This document shows, one piece after another, positions 10,177 through 47,157 of a DNA stretch of 64,000 nucleotides. The notes below the pieces were generated by a model. It did not search any database. It saw only the letters and a program-made list of their open reading frames with translations, and was not told the DNA's origin. The DNA is taken from assembly GCF_003334815.1 (NCBI RefSeq), contig NZ_QOWO01000017.1. One strand, 5' to 3'. Made by a program: the position numbers and the translations under genes. How positions within the stretch are numbered: position 1 is the stretch's first letter; each line of letters begins with the position of its first letter. Origin of the DNA: Escherichia coli (GTDB taxonomy: Bacteria; Pseudomonadota; Gammaproteobacteria; Enterobacterales; Enterobacteriaceae).

Positions 10177-11317
<1,141 letters not shown>

Positions 11318-11815
11318 TCAAGTGTTTTGTAGAAATTGTTGCCACAAGGTCTGCAATGCATACGCAGTAGCCTGACGACGCACCGCATCACGGTCGCCGC
11401 TGAAGCATTCCCGCCGGGTAATGCCTTCACCGCGGGCAGTGGCAAAAGCAAACCAGACGGTGCCGACAGGCTTCTCTTCACTGCCGCCATCCGGCCCGGC
11501 GATACCACTAATAGACACGGCATAATCAGCACGAGCCGCTTTCAGTGCGCCTATCGCCATTTCCACCACGACGGGTTCACTCACCGCGCCATGCTGCGCC
11601 AGCGTCTCTTCGCGTACGCCGATCATCTGCGCTTTGGCTTCGTTACTGTAGGTGACAAATCCGCGTTCAAACCAGGCGGAGCTACCGGCAATATCGGTAA
11701 TCACTTTCGCTACCCAACCACCGGTACAAGACTCGGCAGTTGTTACGGTTGCGCCACGGGCTTTCAGCGCCTGCCCAACCTGTTCACTTAACTGCATCAG
11801 TTCACTGTCAGTCAT
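11318..11815 (-). CDS. pncC: NMN amidohydrolase PncC (CinA-like; formerly YgaD), 165 aa
   Basis: Translation MTDSELMQLSEQVGQALKARGATVTTAESCTGG... (competence-damage CinA C-terminal domain motif); ATG at 11815. Confidence 0.88.
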   Translation of the reverse strand: MTDSELMQLSEQVGQALKARGATVTTAESCTGGWVAKVITDIAGSSAWFERGFVTYSNEAKAQMIGVREETLAQHGAVSEPVVVEMAIGALKAARADYAVSISGIAGPDGGSEEKPVGTVWFAFATARGEGITRRECFSGDRDAVRRQATAYALQTLWQQFLQNT

Positions 11816-34883: not shown

Positions 34884-36710
34884 TCAGGCTCCTCGTGAAA
34901 CAATAATCACCACCAGTACCGCCAGTTCAACCAGCGCCATCCGGCGGAACAGCAACGCACTCCCCTCGCACTGCCAGCCCGGCACCAGAGACACCGGATT
35001 CAGCCATTTGCGTAGTTTCAGCACCGGCGCAAACGCCTGTTTCACCGGCATGGCAAAACCGTGAGCGGTAATCACCATTGATTTTTCGTGGTCGTAACCG
35101 CACACCCAGGCCGCACCGCGGGAACGCGATGGCAAACGATCGCCTTTGCAAATCGCCATAATGATGAATGGCAGCAGCGGGCAGGCAATCAGCAGCAACG
35201 TGATCATCGGTTGAGAAACGGTGGTGTTAGCAGGCTCCAGCGGCAGAGGTACAGCAGCAGAGAGCATCGGCAGTAGCCACGGCGCAGCAACACCGCCAAT
35301 TACGCAGCAAATCGCCAGTGCCACTACGCTTACGCTCATCAGGAGCGGCGCACAGGTGGCGTTTTCGGCTTCTTTGGTGCGCGGCGCGCCGAGGAACGTG
35401 ACGCCATAGACTTTCGCCATACACATCACCGCCAGCGCACCGGTAATTGCCAGCCCCACAGCGAGCAGCGGCCCCAGCAGACGGGCAACAAACGCGCCAC
35501 TATTGCTCAGTTTGAAAAATGATTGATAGATAACCCATTCCCCGGCAAAACCATTCAGCGGCGGCAGCGCAGCCATTGCCATCAGCCCGACTAACATGGC
35601 GATGGAGATAACCGGCATTTTCTTGCCAATACCACCGAGTTTTTCGATATCGCGATGACCGGTACGGAACCAGACGCTCCCCGCCCCGAGGAACAGTACG
35701 CTTTTGAACAGGCTATGGTTAAGCAGATGGTACAGACCACCGACCAGGCCAAGAGCAATCAGCGCCGGTTGTTCGAGCGCGATACCCGTTACGCCAGCGC
35801 CCAGCCCCAGCAGGATGATGCCGATATTTTCCAGGGTGTGGTAAGCCAGCAGGCGCTGGATGTTGTGCTCCACCAGCGCATACAGACCACCGACAAACGC
35901 GGTGATCATGCCGAGCACCAGCAGCGCGATCCCCCACCACAGCGGTGCATTACCGCCCAGCAGTGACAGGGTTAAAATGCCCAGCAGGCCAATTTTCATG
36001 ACTACCGTAGAAAACAACGCGGCAGCTGGCGCAGAGGCGTTCGCATGTGCCTGCGGCACCCAGCCGTGCAGCGGAATAATCCCGGCCAGCAGGCCAAAGC
36101 CAATCACTCCGAGCAGCCAGATATCGGAACCGAGCGGCAGCTGTTGCATACGCATATCCAGCAGGCGCAGATCCAGCGTGCCGTAACGCTGCCACAGCAG
36201 CCAGCAAGCAATCGCCAGCAGCAGAGTGCCAAGACGCCCCAGCGCAAACCACAGTTTGCCCTCTTTGCTGTTGCTGGTGAGGAACACCGCGCACAGGGCC
36301 ATGATTTCGGCCATTACCACGAACATGCCGAGGTTGCTGGCAATGACGGCGCAGACGGCGGCAGCCATCAACATATTGATCTGCAAGCCGTTGCACTTCA
36401 CCTGCGCGTGGCGATGCCAGTCAATGTTGTAGAGGCTGACAAACAGACCGCACAGACCGAGCGTAATCAGCCAAATCGCGTTAAGCGGAGAGATTTGCAC
36501 ATCGTAGCTTACCAGCGACAGCGCACCGCTCACGCCAACCGCGCCAGTCAGTACAGTGAAGCCCGCGGCTGCCGTATACAGACTACCAACCGCGCCGCCA
36601 ATTCCAGCTATCCAGCCACTTAACGCTTTTTGAAAAGAAAAGAGAAATGCCAGAACAGCGGCGGCGACAAACCACGCCACGCCGCTATTGATCAGGGAAA
36701 TTGCGCTCAT
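34884..36710 (-). CDS. hycC: Formate hydrogenlyase membrane subunit HycC (NuoL/antiporter-like)
   Basis: 608-aa polytopic membrane protein. Confidence 0.93.
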   Translation of the reverse strand: MSAISLINSGVAWFVAAAVLAFLFSFQKALSGWIAGIGGAVGSLYTAAAGFTVLTGAVGVSGALSLVSYDVQISPLNAIWLITLGLCGLFVSLYNIDWHRHAQVKCNGLQINMLMAAAVCAVIASNLGMFVVMAEIMALCAVFLTSNSKEGKLWFALGRLGTLLLAIACWLLWQRYGTLDLRLLDMRMQQLPLGSDIWLLGVIGFGLLAGIIPLHGWVPQAHANASAPAAALFSTVVMKIGLLGILTLSLLGGNAPLWWGIALLVLGMITAFVGGLYALVEHNIQRLLAYHTLENIGIILLGLGAGVTGIALEQPALIALGLVGGLYHLLNHSLFKSVLFLGAGSVWFRTGHRDIEKLGGIGKKMPVISIAMLVGLMAMAALPPLNGFAGEWVIYQSFFKLSNSGAFVARLLGPLLAVGLAITGALAVMCMAKVYGVTFLGAPRTKEAENATCAPLLMSVSVVALAICCVIGGVAAPWLLPMLSAAVPLPLEPANTTVSQPMITLLLIACPLLPFIIMAICKGDRLPSRSRGAAWVCGYDHEKSMVITAHGFAMPVKQAFAPVLKLRKWLNPVSLVPGWQCEGSALLFRRMALVELAVLVVIIVSRGA

Positions 36711-37318
36711 TTAGCCTCTCCACTTTGAGCCTGCTGAAACAAGGTGAGATCGCCAAAGTCCGTGTTAAAGGTCAGCTCACGCTTACGTTTGCTGACGCGG
36801 GCGATATCGGTGTTATCCACCAGATGCAGGGCTTTAGTCGGGCACATCCGCACGCAGGCCGGACCTTGTTCATCAAAGCTACAAAGGTCACATTTGACGG
36901 CGATCGCGCGAATACCTGGCACCCAGTCAAGCAATGTGCTGACACGCGCCGGAGCAGGCGGTGCCGGTGGCGCTTTCGGGGTATTGGCGTTTGCCGGAAT
37001 ATCCAGCGGACGGCTGCCGGAAAATTCAATTGCGCCAAACGGGCAGGCGATGCCGCACAGCTTGCAGCTTACGCACAGGCTTTCATTCAACTGCACGGCC
37101 CCATCGACGCGGGTGATGGCGTTAACCGGGCAGACCACCGCGCAGGGTGCATCTTCACAGTGGTGACAGAGCTGCGGCGCAGATTCTTTTTCATTCAGCA
37201 TCACTCTCAGGCGCGGCATTGATTGCAGGCCGTGCTGGCGATGCGTCTCTGAACAGGCGGCCTCACAAGTGTGGCAGCCGATACAGAGCGTGGAGTCAGC
37301 AATTACAAAACGATTCAC
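36707..37318 (-). CDS. hycB: Formate hydrogenlyase Fe-S subunit HycB
   Basis: Four ferredoxin-type Cys clusters, 203 aa. Confidence 0.93.
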   Translation of the reverse strand: MNRFVIADSTLCIGCHTCEAACSETHRQHGLQSMPRLRVMLNEKESAPQLCHHCEDAPCAVVCPVNAITRVDGAVQLNESLCVSCKLCGIACPFGAIEFSGSRPLDIPANANTPKAPPAPPAPARVSTLLDWVPGIRAIAVKCDLCSFDEQGPACVRMCPTKALHLVDNTDIARVSKRKRELTFNTDFGDLTLFQQAQSGEAK

Positions 37319-37338: not shown

Positions 37339-37381
37339 GTCATTTTTGACGAAAACATGCCGATGAAATGTCATTTTCGAC
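37339..37381. promoter_or_regulatory. Paired GTCATTTT(T/C)GAC motifs in the hycB-hycA intergenic region, candidate FhlA upstream activating sequence
   Basis: gtcatttttgac (37339..37350) and gtcattttcgac (37370..37381), read directly from sequence. Confidence 0.5.
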
Positions 37382-37442: not shown

Positions 37443-37904
37443 TCATGCTGCCGGGCTTTGTCCCTTTACCAGTTGGCTTAAATTCACCGGCACATTGTTT
37501 TCAATAGCGGTGTATAAGCTGTCGTAAACGCCAGCGATTTTTTCGAGATAGTGTTCCAGAACCTGTTCGCGATCGCGGATGTTGACCTTGCCATCAATCA
37601 TGCCGTCAATGCTCAGTTGCGCCTGCGCAATCCGCTGTTTGTCTTCGCCATCTTTTGTTTCGACGTAATACTCGATGGTGTGGCTGTTAAAGCCATCCGC
37701 CAGGGTGACGTAAATGCGAAAATGTTCAAAAAGGACGAAACAGAGTTCTTTGTCCGGCGCGCAGCTCATGGCGTGATGCAGGCGCGCTTTCGATAACGTG
37801 ATCCCCTGAACCAGCGAATTGCAGTAGATGTGCCACTGGTCCTGTAGGCGACGATGCCGCTGTGCGATGTAATCGGCTTTCTCGCTTATTTCCCAAATAG
37901 TCAT
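37443..37904 (-). CDS. hycA: Formate hydrogenlyase regulatory protein HycA
   Basis: Translation and operon position, 153 aa. Confidence 0.92.
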   Translation of the reverse strand: MTIWEISEKADYIAQRHRRLQDQWHIYCNSLVQGITLSKARLHHAMSCAPDKELCFVLFEHFRIYVTLADGFNSHTIEYYVETKDGEDKQRIAQAQLSIDGMIDGKVNIRDREQVLEHYLEKIAGVYDSLYTAIENNVPVNLSQLVKGQSPAA

Positions 37905-41806: not shown

Positions 41807-43885
41807 ATGTCATATACACCGATGAGTGATCTCGGACAACAAGGGTTGTTCGACATCACTCGGACACTATTGCAGCAGCCCGATCTGGCCTCGCTGTGTG
41901 AGGCTCTTTCGCAACTGGTAAAGCGTTCTGCGCTCGCCGACAACGCGGCTATTGTGTTGTGGCAAGCGCAGACTCAACGTGCGTCTTATTACGCGTCGCG
42001 TGAAAAAGACACCCCCATTAAATATGAAGACGAAACTGTTCTGGCACACGGTCCGGTACGCAGCATTTTGTCGCGCCCTGATACGCTGCATTGCAGTTAC
42101 GAAGAATTTTGTGAAACCTGGCCGCAGCTGGACGCAGGTGGGCTATACCCAAAATTTGGTCACTATTGCCTGATGCCACTGGCGGCGGAAGGGCATATTT
42201 TTGGTGGCTGTGAATTTATTCGTTATGACGATCGCCCCTGGAGCGAAAAAGAGTTCAATCGTCTGCAAACATTTACGCAGATCGTTTCTGTCGTCACCGA
42301 ACAAATCCAGAGCCGCGTCGTTAACAATGTCGACTATGAGTTGTTATGCCGGGAACGCGATAACTTCCGCATCCTGGTCGCCATCACCAACGCGGTGCTT
42401 TCCCGCCTGGATATGGACGAACTGGTCAGCGAAGTCGCCAAAGAAATCCATTACTATTTCGACATTGACGATATCAGTATCGTCTTACGCAGCCACCGTA
42501 AAAACAAACTCAACATCTACTCCACTCACTATCTTGATAAACAGCATCCCGCCCACGAACAGAGCGAAGTCGATGAAGCCGGAACCCTCACCGAACGCGT
42601 GTTCAAAAGTAAAGAGATGCTGCTGATCAATCTCCACGAGCGGGACGATTTAGCCCCCTATGAACGCATGTTGTTCGACACCTGGGGCAACCAGATTCAA
42701 ACCTTGTGCCTGTTACCGCTGATGTCTGGCGACACCATGCTGGGCGTGCTGAAACTGGCGCAATGCGAAGAGAAAGTGTTTACCACTACCAATCTGAATT
42801 TACTGCGCCAGATTGCCGAACGTGTGGCAATCGCTGTCGATAACGCCCTCGCCTATCAGGAAATCCATCGTCTGAAAGAACGGCTGGTTGATGAAAACCT
42901 CGCCCTGACCGAGCAGCTCAACAATGTTGATAGTGAATTTGGCGAGATTATTGGCCGCAGCGAAGCCATGTACAGCGTGCTTAAACAAGTTGAAATGGTG
43001 GCGCAAAGTGACAGTACCGTGCTGATCCTCGGTGAAACTGGCACGGGTAAAGAGCTGATTGCCCGTGCGATCCATAATCTCAGTGGGCGTAATAATCGCC
43101 GCATGGTCAAAATGAACTGCGCGGCGATGCCTGCCGGATTGCTGGAAAGCGATCTGTTTGGTCATGAGCGTGGGGCTTTTACCGGTGCCAGCGCCCAGCG
43201 TATCGGTCGTTTTGAACTGGCGGATAAAAGCTCCCTGTTCCTCGACGAAGTGGGCGATATGCCACTGGAGTTACAGCCGAAGTTGCTGCGTGTATTGCAG
43301 GAACAGGAGTTTGAACGTCTCGGCAGCAACAAAATCATTCAGACGGACGTGCGTCTAATCGCCGCGACTAACCGCGATCTGAAAAAAATGGTCGCCGACC
43401 GTGAGTTCCGTAGCGATCTCTATTACCGCCTGAACGTATTCCCGATTCACCTGCCGCCACTACGCGAGCGTCCGGAAGATATTCCGCTGCTGGCGAAAGC
43501 CTTTACCTTCAAAATTGCCCGTCGTCTGGGGCGCAATATCGACAGCATTCCTGCCGAGACGCTGCGCACCTTGAGCAACATGGAGTGGCCGGGTAACGTA
43601 CGCGAACTGGAAAACGTCATTGAGCGCGCGGTATTGCTAACACGCGGTAACGTGCTGCAGCTGTCATTGCCAGATATTGTTTTACCGGAACCTGAAACGC
43701 CGCCTGCCGCAACGGTTGTCGCCCTGGAGGGCGAAGATGAATATCAGTTGATTGTGCGCGTGCTGAAAGAAACCAACGGCGTGGTTGCCGGGCCTAAAGG
43801 CGCTGCGCAACGTCTGGGGCTGAAACGCACGACCCTGCTGTCACGGATGAAGCGGCTGGGAATTGATAAATCGGCATTGATTTAA
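41807..43885 (+). CDS. fhlA: Formate hydrogenlyase transcriptional activator FhlA (sigma54 enhancer-binding protein), 692 aa
   Basis: Start moved to MSYTPMSDLGQQGLFDITR; AAA+ motifs GETGTGKE and GAFTGA, C-terminal HTH. Confidence 0.94.
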   Translation: MSYTPMSDLGQQGLFDITRTLLQQPDLASLCEALSQLVKRSALADNAAIVLWQAQTQRASYYASREKDTPIKYEDETVLAHGPVRSILSRPDTLHCSYEEFCETWPQLDAGGLYPKFGHYCLMPLAAEGHIFGGCEFIRYDDRPWSEKEFNRLQTFTQIVSVVTEQIQSRVVNNVDYELLCRERDNFRILVAITNAVLSRLDMDELVSEVAKEIHYYFDIDDISIVLRSHRKNKLNIYSTHYLDKQHPAHEQSEVDEAGTLTERVFKSKEMLLINLHERDDLAPYERMLFDTWGNQIQTLCLLPLMSGDTMLGVLKLAQCEEKVFTTTNLNLLRQIAERVAIAVDNALAYQEIHRLKERLVDENLALTEQLNNVDSEFGEIIGRSEAMYSVLKQVEMVAQSDSTVLILGETGTGKELIARAIHNLSGRNNRRMVKMNCAAMPAGLLESDLFGHERGAFTGASAQRIGRFELADKSSLFLDEVGDMPLELQPKLLRVLQEQEFERLGSNKIIQTDVRLIAATNRDLKKMVADREFRSDLYYRLNVFPIHLPPLRERPEDIPLLAKAFTFKIARRLGRNIDSIPAETLRTLSNMEWPGNVRELENVIERAVLLTRGNVLQLSLPDIVLPEPETPPAATVVALEGEDEYQLIVRVLKETNGVVAGPKGAAQRLGLKRTTLLSRMKRLGIDKSALI

Positions 43886-43894
43886 CTGCAAATT

Positions 43895-43918
43895 GCCGGA
43901 CAGATCTGCCTGTCCGGC
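43895..43918. terminator. Bidirectional hairpin (gccggacag/ctgtccggc) between convergent fhlA and ygbA
   Basis: Perfect 9-bp inverted repeat. Confidence 0.6.
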
Positions 43919-43921
43919 ATA

Positions 43922-44275
43922 CTATTCATGAGGTTTTTTCGGACGATATTTTTCCGGCAGTTCTGGCACCGGACGCTTGTCATCGATGAGATGACGCACG
44001 GTTAAGATCGGATGACGCCACAGCATTCTCGGCCCGGCCCAACGCATAATCTGTTTCATCTCTTCACGCTTTGCAGGCTGGTAACAGTGCACCGGACACT
44101 GCTTACAGGCTGGTTTCTCTTCGCCGAACACACATTTATCCAGCCGCTTTTGCGCGTAAACAAACAACGCCTCGTAATGCTCCGGCTCCGCTGACGCCTG
44201 CGGGCATTTCGCTTGATAAAGATCGATCATTTTTTTAATCGTCAGTTTTTCACGAGAGATACGCTTGCCGGACAT
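43922..44275 (-). CDS. ygbA: Nitrous oxide-stimulated promoter family protein YgbA (117 aa, Cys-rich)
   Basis: Translation; position between fhlA and mutS. Confidence 0.88.
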   Translation of the reverse strand: MSGKRISREKLTIKKMIDLYQAKCPQASAEPEHYEALFVYAQKRLDKCVFGEEKPACKQCPVHCYQPAKREEMKQIMRWAGPRMLWRHPILTVRHLIDDKRPVPELPEKYRPKKPHE

Positions 44276-44290
44276 GCTGCCTCCACCTCA

Positions 44291-44317
44291 TTAAGATGTA
44301 TTTATATTACATCTTAA
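44291..44317. promoter_or_regulatory. NsrR-type operator palindrome upstream of ygbA (ttaagatgta tttatat tacatcttaa)
   Basis: Perfect 10-bp inverted repeat with AAGATGnATTT-like half-sites, 16 bp upstream of the ygbA start codon. Confidence 0.7.
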
Positions 44318-44561
44318 TCTTAAAGGGCACTATGACTCCAAAGAAGAAGGGTTAGCCAACCGATACAATTTTGCGTACTTGCTTCATAAGCATCACGCAA
44401 AAGCTGCAAAACAGCACCTTTCCCGGAACCAGCATCAAGAACTCGCCGTTCGCTTCTTCCCCTGAAATGATTAACTCCGGTATCATGTGCGCCTTATGTG
44501 ATTACAACGAAAATAAAAACCATCACACCCCATTTAATATCAGGGAACCGGACATAACCCC

Positions 44562-47123
44562 ATGAGTGCAATAGAAAATTTCGACGCCCATACGCCCATG
44601 ATGCAGCAGTATCTCAGGCTGAAAGCCCAGCATCCCGAGATCCTGCTGTTTTACCGGATGGGTGATTTTTATGAACTGTTTTATGACGACGCAAAACGCG
44701 CGTCGCAACTGCTGGATATTTCACTGACCAAACGCGGTGCTTCGGCGGGAGAGCCGATCCCGATGGCGGGGATTCCCTACCATGCGGTGGAAAACTATCT
44801 CGCCAAACTGGTGAATCAGGGAGAGTCCGTTGCCATCTGCGAACAAATTGGCGATCCGGCGACCAGCAAAGGTCCGGTTGAGCGCAAAGTTGTGCGTATC
44901 GTTACGCCAGGCACCATCAGCGATGAAGCCCTGTTGCAGGAGCGTCAGGACAACCTGCTGGCGGCTATCTGGCAGGACAGCAAAGGTTTCGGCTACGCGA
45001 CGCTGGATATCAGTTCCGGGCGTTTTCGCCTGAGCGAACCGGCTGACCGCGAAACGATGGCGGCAGAACTGCAACGCACTAATCCTGCGGAACTGCTGTA
45101 TGCAGAAGATTTTGCTGAAATGTCGTTAATTGAAGGCCGTCGCGGCCTGCGCCGTCGCCCGCTGTGGGAGTTTGAAATCGACACCGCGCGCCAGCAGTTG
45201 AATCTGCAATTTGGGACCCGCGATCTGGTCGGTTTTGGCGTCGAGAACGCGCCGCGCGGACTTTGTGCTGCCGGTTGTCTGTTGCAGTATGCGAAAGATA
45301 CCCAACGTACGACTCTGCCGCATATTCGTTCCATCACCATGGAACGTGAGCAGGACAGCATCATTATGGATGCCGCGACGCGTCGTAATCTGGAAATCAC
45401 CCAGAACCTGGCGGGTGGTGCGGAAAATACGCTGGCTTCTGTGCTCGACTGCACCGTCACGCCGATGGGCAGCCGTATGCTGAAACGCTGGCTGCATATG
45501 CCAGTGCGCGATACCCGCGTGTTGCTTGAGCGCCAGCAAACTATTGGCGCATTGCAGGATTTCACCGCCGGGCTACAGCCGGTACTGCGTCAGGTCGGCG
45601 ACCTGGAACGTATTCTGGCACGTCTGGCTTTACGAACTGCTCGCCCACGCGATCTGGCCCGTATGCGCCACGCTTTCCAGCAACTGCCGGAGCTGCGTGC
45701 GCAGTTAGAAACTGTCGATAGTGCACCGGTACAGGCGCTACGTGAGAAGATGGGCGAGTTTGCCGAGCTGCGCGATCTGCTGGAGCGAGCAATCATCGAC
45801 ACACCGCCGGTGCTGGTACGCGACGGTGGTGTTATCGCATCGGGCTATAACGAAGAGCTGGATGAGTGGCGCGCGCTGGCTGACGGCGCGACCGATTATC
45901 TGGAGCGTCTGGAAGTCCGCGAGCGTGAACGTACCGGCCTGGACACGCTGAAAGTTGGCTTTAATGCGGTGCACGGCTACTACATTCAAATCAGCCGTGG
46001 GCAAAGCCATCTGGCACCCATCAACTACATGCGTCGCCAGACGCTGAAAAACGCCGAGCGCTACATCATTCCAGAGCTAAAAGAGTACGAAGATAAAGTT
46101 CTCACCTCAAAAGGCAAAGCACTGGCACTGGAAAAACAGCTTTATGAAGAGCTGTTCGACCTGCTGTTGCCGCATCTGGAAGCGTTGCAACAGAGCGCGA
46201 GCGCGCTGGCGGAACTCGACGTGCTGGTTAACCTGGCGGAACGGGCCTATACCCTGAACTACACCTGCCCGACCTTCATTGATAAACCGGGCATTCGCAT
46301 TACCGAAGGTCGCCATCCGGTAGTTGAACAAGTACTGAATGAGCCATTTATCGCCAACCCGCTGAATCTGTCGCCGCAGCGCCGCATGTTGATCATCACC
46401 GGTCCGAACATGGGCGGTAAAAGTACCTATATGCGCCAGACCGCACTGATTGCGCTGATGGCCTACATCGGCAGCTATGTACCGGCACAAAAAGTCGAGA
46501 TTGGACCTATCGATCGCATCTTTACCCGCGTAGGCGCGGCAGATGACCTGGCGTCCGGGCGCTCAACCTTTATGGTGGAGATGACTGAAACCGCCAATAT
46601 TTTACATAACGCCACCGAATACAGTCTGGTGTTAATGGATGAGATCGGGCGTGGAACGTCCACCTACGATGGTCTGTCGCTGGCGTGGGCGTGCGCGGAA
46701 AATCTGGCGAATAAGATTAAGGCATTGACGTTATTTGCTACCCACTATTTCGAGCTGACCCAGTTACCGGAGAAAATGGAAGGCGTCGCTAACGTGCATC
46801 TCGATGCACTGGAGCACGGCGACACCATTGCCTTTATGCACAGCGTGCAGGATGGCGCGGCGAGCAAAAGCTACGGCCTGGCGGTTGCAGCTCTGGCAGG
46901 CGTGCCAAAAGAGGTTATTAAGCGCGCACGGCAAAAGCTGCGTGAGCTGGAAAGCATTTCGCCGAACGCCGCCGCTACGCAAGTGGATGGTACGCAAATG
47001 TCTTTGCTGTCAGTACCAGAAGAAACTTCGCCTGCGGTCGAAGCTCTGGAAAATCTTGATCCGGATTCACTCACCCCGCGTCAGGCGCTGGAGTGGATTT
47101 ATCGCTTGAAGAGCCTGGTGTAA
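44562..47123 (+). CDS. mutS: DNA mismatch repair protein MutS (853 aa), full length
   Basis: Translation [40 protein letters not shown]..., Walker [10 protein letters not shown]. Confidence 0.97.
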
Positions 47124-47128
47124 TAACA

Positions 47129-47157
47129 ATTCCCGATAGTCTTTTGCTATCGGGAAT
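47129..47157 (+). terminator. mutS terminator hairpin (attcccgatag/ctatcgggaat)
   Basis: Perfect 11-bp inverted repeat 6 nt after the mutS stop. Confidence 0.7.

Follow-up and report, generated by a model that had tools for sequence, protein, structure and literature searches.

The ygbA-mutS spacer and its palindrome

The analysed window is a 64-kb stretch of Escherichia coli DNA, in which the annotated gene order around the site of interest runs hypE, fhlA, ygbA (minus strand), mutS (plus strand) and pphB. Positions 43900-44600 are matched in 5,420 of 5,426 complete E. coli genomes, with 99.9% identity to K-12 MG1655. The divergent ygbA and mutS genes are separated by a spacer of 286 bp (44276..44561), a length that an earlier note on this DNA had given and that the open reading frame coordinates bear out. 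The features needed here are listed below.

43922..44275, minus strand: ygbA coding sequence, 117 aa, the regulated gene (Pfam PF11756 YgbA_NO, E = 1.4e-40)
44280-44284, minus strand: ygbA Shine-Dalgarno sequence GGAGG, read directly from the bases; the G-rich block at this place is kept across genera
44291..44317, no strand: perfect palindrome TTAAGATGTA-TTTATAT-TACATCTTAA, with 10-bp arms, a 7-bp centre and full complementarity
44293..44315, no strand: assigned NsrR operator, 23 bp, an 11-1-11 inverted repeat AAGATGTATTT-A-TATTACATCTT (weight matrix, pattern, conservation, published table)
44488..44561, plus strand: mutS 5' UTR, 74 nt, stopping short of the palindrome (PMC5580658; coordinates checked on the sequence)
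44562..47123, plus strand: mutS coding sequence, from the open reading frame list

The perfect 10-bp-arm inverted repeat that the earlier note had described at 44291..44317 is exact in the window, its arms fully complementary, and a repeat search extends the arms to 11 nt (44290-44300 and 44308-44318). The palindrome is separated from the A of the ygbA ATG by 15 nt, which corresponds to the reported offset of 16, and the GGAGG sequence sits inside that gap. The palindrome by itself is merely mildly unusual, because first-order Markov simulations give a chance expectation of about 0.63 perfect inverted repeats per 64 kb (arms of at least 10, spacer of at most 10). About nine distinct repeats of this kind are actually present in the window, mostly G+C-rich hairpins of the terminator type. 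One such hairpin, TGCCGGACAGATCTGCCTGTCCGGCA at 43894-43919, is perfect and G+C-rich, separates the convergent 3' ends of fhlA and ygbA, and is probably a bidirectional terminator; hairpins resembling it are found at 47129-47157 (after mutS) and at 53944-53971. The product of ygbA carries the name "nitrous oxide-stimulated promoter family protein" in both RefSeq and Pfam, which looks like a propagated misnomer, as the literature examined concerns nitric oxide (NO) and the name describes a promoter, not a protein.

On the other side of the spacer, the mutS transcription start has been placed at -74, with an (AAN)3 Hfq site spanning -50 to -42 (PMC5580658). In the window this Hfq site is AATAAAAAC at 44512-44520, which fixes the numbering and therefore sets the mutS transcription start at about 44488. 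The spacer was thus rightly said to hold the mutS promoter, given this published start (PMC5580658), but its description as a "long mutS leader region" has to be dropped. The mutS 5' UTR is just 74 nt long, and the palindrome, which ends at 44317, lies about 171-197 bp upstream of the mutS transcription start (184 bp from the centre of the site) and outside any mutS transcript.

In many strains, K-12 and O157 among them, a minus-strand "hypothetical protein" of 44 aa is annotated at 44352-44486 by RefSeq/PGAP. The CAT in TATCAT, directly upstream of the mutS start, gives its ATG in reverse complement; the frame is unannotated in the B2 strain SYNB1934, frameshifted in JNE120442, and called in 120899 as a 59-aa version that overlaps the palindrome. 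This open reading frame is probably a spurious call.

Variation is unevenly distributed over the spacer. Across nine aligned E. coli strains, 24% of columns vary between the operator and the mutS promoter (44316-44440), where the K-12-like window and strain Nissle show 27 differences, and just 6-7% vary in the mutS promoter and 5' UTR. Over 44230-44600, roughly 1,050 genomes are only about 88.7% identical to the window and no genome in the collection reaches 100% identity; the sole difference from K-12 in this interval is at 44417, which is C in the window and T in K-12 and seven other aligned E. coli. In one strain from a platypus (E. coli A2, L009), an IS3-family element lies about 60 bp beyond the operator, at the equivalent of about 44379, and parts the ygbA promoter from mutS.

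The NsrR site, its conservation and its alleles

NsrR is an Rrf2-family iron-sulfur repressor that senses nitric oxide, and its gene, nsrR (yjeB), is located outside the 64-kb window, at another place on the E. coli chromosome. Within the palindrome, the 23-mer at 44293-44315 (AAGATGTATTTATATTACATCTT, the K-12 allele) is composed of two 11-bp half-sites resembling AAGATGCATTT with a 1-bp gap, as in NsrR operators of the E. coli type. Half-site AAGATGTATTT (44293-44303) agrees with AAGATGyATTT at 11 of 11 positions, and the other half-site, read as its reverse complement AAGATGTAATA, agrees at 9 of 11.

The earlier note had proposed a fit to the AAGATGnATTT-type NsrR operator, to be checked against NsrR weight matrices. 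The matrix used here was symmetrised, had 23 columns and drew on the other 25 sites of the 11-1-11 type that Table 4 of PMC5320621 lists for NsrR, which are ChIP-supported or predicted; ygbA itself was excluded. With this matrix, 44293-44315 ranks first in the 64-kb window at 23.05 bits, about 5 SD over the mean. Training sites score 12.6-32.2 bits and the best non-training match in the window scores 12.74, so that the ygbA site falls inside the range of accepted sites with a matrix that had been built without it. A degenerate NsrR pattern allowing at most 3 mismatches gave one match in the window against 0.23 expected. Both the half-site agreement and the matrix rank thus bear the proposal out.

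Two other places in the window were noted during these scans. The second-best matrix match, AACATGCCGATGAAATGTCATTT at 37354-37376, scores 16.9 bits, a value that is not independent as the site is a member of the training set; it is the reverse complement of the published CFT073 "hycB" ChIP-seq site and falls between the minus-strand open reading frames taken as hycA (37443..37904) and hycB (36707..37318). At 2046-2069, AAGCCAGTTCATTTGAACTGGCTT is a perfect palindrome with arms of 10-12 bp and a short spacer, and it overlaps a weak match to the NsrR matrix (9.5 bits, 2049-2071).

The ygbA upstream regions of related species were collected through a YgbA protein search, keeping one genome per species, which gave 80 loci from about 25 genera. 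These genera include Escherichia, Citrobacter, Salmonella, Enterobacter, Klebsiella, Raoultella, Kluyvera, Lelliottia, Leclercia, Pluralibacter, Phytobacter, Rahnella and Hafnia. Over the 80 species, the median score of the best matrix match within 150 nt upstream of ygbA is 19.9 bits; in the remaining ~3.2 kb of each locus, which served as the control, the best match has a median of 6.05 bits and a maximum of 13.8. The distance from the end of the site to the ygbA start codon is 12-22 nt in 79 of 80 species, so that the site is conserved upstream of the orthologues, as expected of an NsrR operator; the site is also present at two loci (L065 and L072) where the assumed start codons (ACG/ACA) are off and the distances to the ATG are unreliable. 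In an alignment of 24 genera, the site is the only conserved block besides an RBS-like G-rich patch by the start codon, and the remainder of the ygbA upstream region is unalignable. At the level of sequence, the matrix rank together with the recurrence of the site at the corresponding place in 79 of 80 other species is the decisive evidence for it.

The comparison across species also bears on which gene the site serves. As a mere 286 bp separates the divergent genes ygbA and mutS in Escherichia, one operator might be shared, with NsrR or NO also controlling mutS transcription. Against this, mutS is the divergent upstream neighbor of ygbA in only 23 of the 80 species (the spacer measures 283-286 bp in Escherichia, while in the Enterobacter/Lelliottia/Leclercia group it is about 510-533 bp long), and the site is retained at ygbA in the 57 of 80 species that have no mutS within 1.5 kb upstream. 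The site follows ygbA even though mutS adjoins it in so few species, and the operator therefore belongs to ygbA, not to the ygbA-mutS pair. In addition, the centre of the site is 184 bp from the published mutS start, and conservation of the mutS promoter and leader does not depend on the variable spacer. In the NsrR literature that was examined, no report of mutS as an NsrR target was found. On distance and synteny, mutS was rejected as the gene served by the site, which makes joint control of the two genes very unlikely; an action of NsrR bound at the ygbA site on the mutS promoter 184 bp away is a more remote possibility.

The NsrR operator of ygbA is already known, NsrR control of the gene having been reported in 2005-2006 and followed by ChIP-chip, ChIP-seq and the listing of the site in published tables. 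The NsrR motif was derived in 2005 in a paper that also mentions, as a personal communication, that hmp, ytfE and ygbA are repressed by YjeB/NsrR (PMC1274295). A later study treats ygbA as a known NsrR target, citing Bodenmiller and Spiro 2006, and cites Partridge et al. 2009 for K-12 ChIP-chip data in which NsrR was bound at the ygbA promoter (PMC5320621). In CFT073, ygbA was among the genes most induced by nitrate/NO (PMC5320621, 2015), and the CFT073 allele of its NsrR site, AAGGTGCATTTATATTACAACTT, is listed in Table 4 of that paper. ChIP-seq in CFT073 did not detect NsrR at ygbA, which the authors regarded as a probable false negative, and the NsrR proteins of K-12 and CFT073 are identical (PMC5320621). 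In a Salmonella nsrR mutant, ygbA mRNA was up 31.8-fold (PMC2884951, 2007).

Although the palindrome is indeed perfect in the window, as the earlier note had stated, this perfection is not conserved: of 5,426 E. coli genomes, 2,111 (39%) have the exact 33-mer containing it. Other lineages carry 1-3 changes at positions that the matrix tolerates. Among the nine aligned strains, the plus-strand alternatives are at positions 4 (A/G), 7 (T/C), 15 (T/C) and 20 (T/A), so that K-12-type genomes have a symmetric GATG...CATC and the B2 strains (CFT073, Nissle) have GGTG...CAAC, the B2 allele being identical to the published CFT073 site. The four observed changes sum to +0.98 bits, as opposed to a mean of -2.6 bits for a random substitution (P ~0.01), and the alleles therefore keep a good site rather than perfect symmetry. 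In the nine strains, 4 of the operator's 23 columns are variable compared with 24% of columns in the spacer, so polymorphism is not much lower in the site than around it. Natural alleles could conceivably differ in NsrR occupancy, with the basal level of ygbA and its NO threshold then differing by phylogroup, and while we consider this doubtful, such a difference would account for the positive ChIP-chip result in K-12 and the ChIP-seq miss in CFT073.

A predicted ygbA promoter beneath the operator

The operator was read in the ygbA sense over 66 distinct sequences, and an ungapped profile anchored on the site was made from 81 sequences. In this orientation, positions 7, 8 and 12 are invariant (T, A and T), and position 11 is A in 65 of 66; the NsrR matrix, by contrast, favours C and T at positions 7 and 11, respectively, and is neutral at position 12. 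Positions 7-12 spell TAnnAT, as TATTAT in 52 species and as TAATAT in 7 of 80, the Escherichia loci among them. A second peak of information lies 17 bp upstream of this hexamer, at -35/-34/-33 (T or C, then T, A or G, then G), and G is present at -33 in 74 of 81 sequences. Downstream, a C is found 6 nt past the hexamer in 80 of 81 sequences (-1) and an A 7 nt past it in 77 of 81 (+1). These conserved elements would constitute a standard sigma-70 promoter embedded in the operator, with the following parts in the window.

44327..44332, minus strand: predicted weak ygbA -35 element TAGTGC, from the anchored profile, 17 bp upstream of the -10
44304..44309, minus strand: predicted ygbA -10 element TAATAT, from TAnnAT conservation, within the half-site farther from ygbA
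44297 +/-2 nt, minus strand: predicted ygbA transcription start, from the C/A at -1/+1; the 5' UTR would then be about 22 nt long

If the operator and the -10 hexamer occupy the same bases in this way, the overlap explains why the site departs from the NsrR consensus at these three positions in essentially every genus. A scan of 43880-44620 with strict sigma-70 and terminator consensus sequences found no promoter; as the ygbA -35 is weak, this is no proof of absence. The openly readable literature yielded neither a mapped ygbA transcription start nor a statement that the repeat lies over the -10. The abstract of Bodenmiller and Spiro (2006) reportedly describes an inverted repeat lying across the -10 element in the promoters of ytfE, hmpA and ygbA, and the geometry predicted here agrees with that description.

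The operator would in this arrangement span about -18 to +5 and so lie on the core promoter of the gene that it represses, with the -10 TAATAT contained in its gene-distal half-site and the predicted start at about 44297 covered. From this span it follows that bound NsrR would occlude RNA polymerase: a dimer at 44293-44315 would either exclude the polymerase or block open-complex formation, and ygbA would be off. Steric occlusion as the mode of repression depends on the assignment of the -35, -10 and +1 positions and is put forward on that footing. The repressor would be released when NO nitrosylates the NsrR cluster or when the cluster is lost under iron limitation, and the freed promoter would then produce a transcript with a short leader of about 22 nt. 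The NO and iron-sulfur chemistry that this scheme invokes is established for NsrR in general and is not drawn from the window.

The palindrome could instead act as a nucleic-acid hairpin rather than as a protein operator, either as a stem-loop that masks the ribosome binding site in a longer ygbA leader or as a DNA cruciform. Minus-strand RNA from 44330 to 44273 does fold stably, at -19.4 kcal/mol (z = -4.73), and the fold includes an 11-bp stem, with an outer helix that pairs the Shine-Dalgarno region. The orthologous sites do not preserve such a structure: over 70 distinct sites, pairing amounts to 76.5% where shuffled sites give 74.2%, 31-44% of species lack pairing at the symmetric positions that vary, and perfect arms are confined to 39% of E. 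coli genomes. A functional hairpin was rejected on this covariation test. The predicted ygbA start also falls within the palindrome, and if transcription begins at about 44297 the stem is not transcribed and the fold of the longer leader is probably irrelevant. On the mutS side, the palindrome is far upstream (about 171-197 bp) of the transcription start, and a scan of 43900-44700 against Rfam (E<=1) gave no family match. A hairpin function is accordingly most improbable. A chance AT-rich palindrome, or the site of another regulator that resembles the NsrR motif, can be given practically no weight, for although about 0.6 perfect repeats with 10-bp arms are expected per 64 kb and CFT073 ChIP-seq was negative at ygbA (PMC5320621), this reading is effectively refuted by the conservation data, with the top matrix rank and the fixed position in 79 of 80 species standing beside nsrR-dependent ygbA expression published for two genera (PMC5320621, PMC2884951).

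We therefore regard the palindrome, with high confidence, as the operator through which NsrR acts on the ygbA promoter, the 23-bp site sitting atop the predicted ygbA core promoter. The NO-responsive repression of ygbA through this palindrome that the earlier note had put forward is supported by the matrix rank, the footprint across genera, the overlap with the predicted core promoter and the literature. What the present analysis adds is the anatomy of the predicted overlap between operator and -10, the ownership of the site by ygbA whatever gene lies upstream, and the recognition that perfect symmetry is an allele and not a requirement.

Comparison with known operators

In comparison with the E. 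coli 11-1-11 NsrR operators of ytfE, hmp and hcp (consensus AAGATGCATTT-N-AAATGCATCTT), the ygbA site has the same 23-bp geometry. Like them, it appears to overlap a core promoter and serves a nitrosative-stress gene, and one of its halves equals AAGATGyATTT. Unlike their consensus, the gene-distal half at ygbA appears bent to the -10: A replaces T at position 11, T replaces C at position 7, and the central position 12, which is otherwise free, is always T. The mean score of this gene-distal half-site is 7.1 bits, as opposed to 11.3 bits for the gene-proximal one, and the lower value arises because the distal half is bent towards the -10 hexamer.

Other operators of the Rrf2 family, such as those of IscR, are palindromes of about 23-25 bp that are bound by a dimer and overlap promoters. 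The ygbA site is like these in general form, and of its two half-sites one fits the NsrR consensus at all 11 positions and the other at 9 of 11. The window also contains ATACTGTATGCTCATACAGTAT at 11297-11318, a perfect AT-rich palindrome of the form CTGT-N8-ACAG adjoining a promoter, which looks like the LexA (SOS) box of recA, judged by the LexA consensus. The ygbA operator differs from this putative LexA box in motif, regulator and signal, and the two have in common that both are perfect AT-rich palindromes of the operator type.
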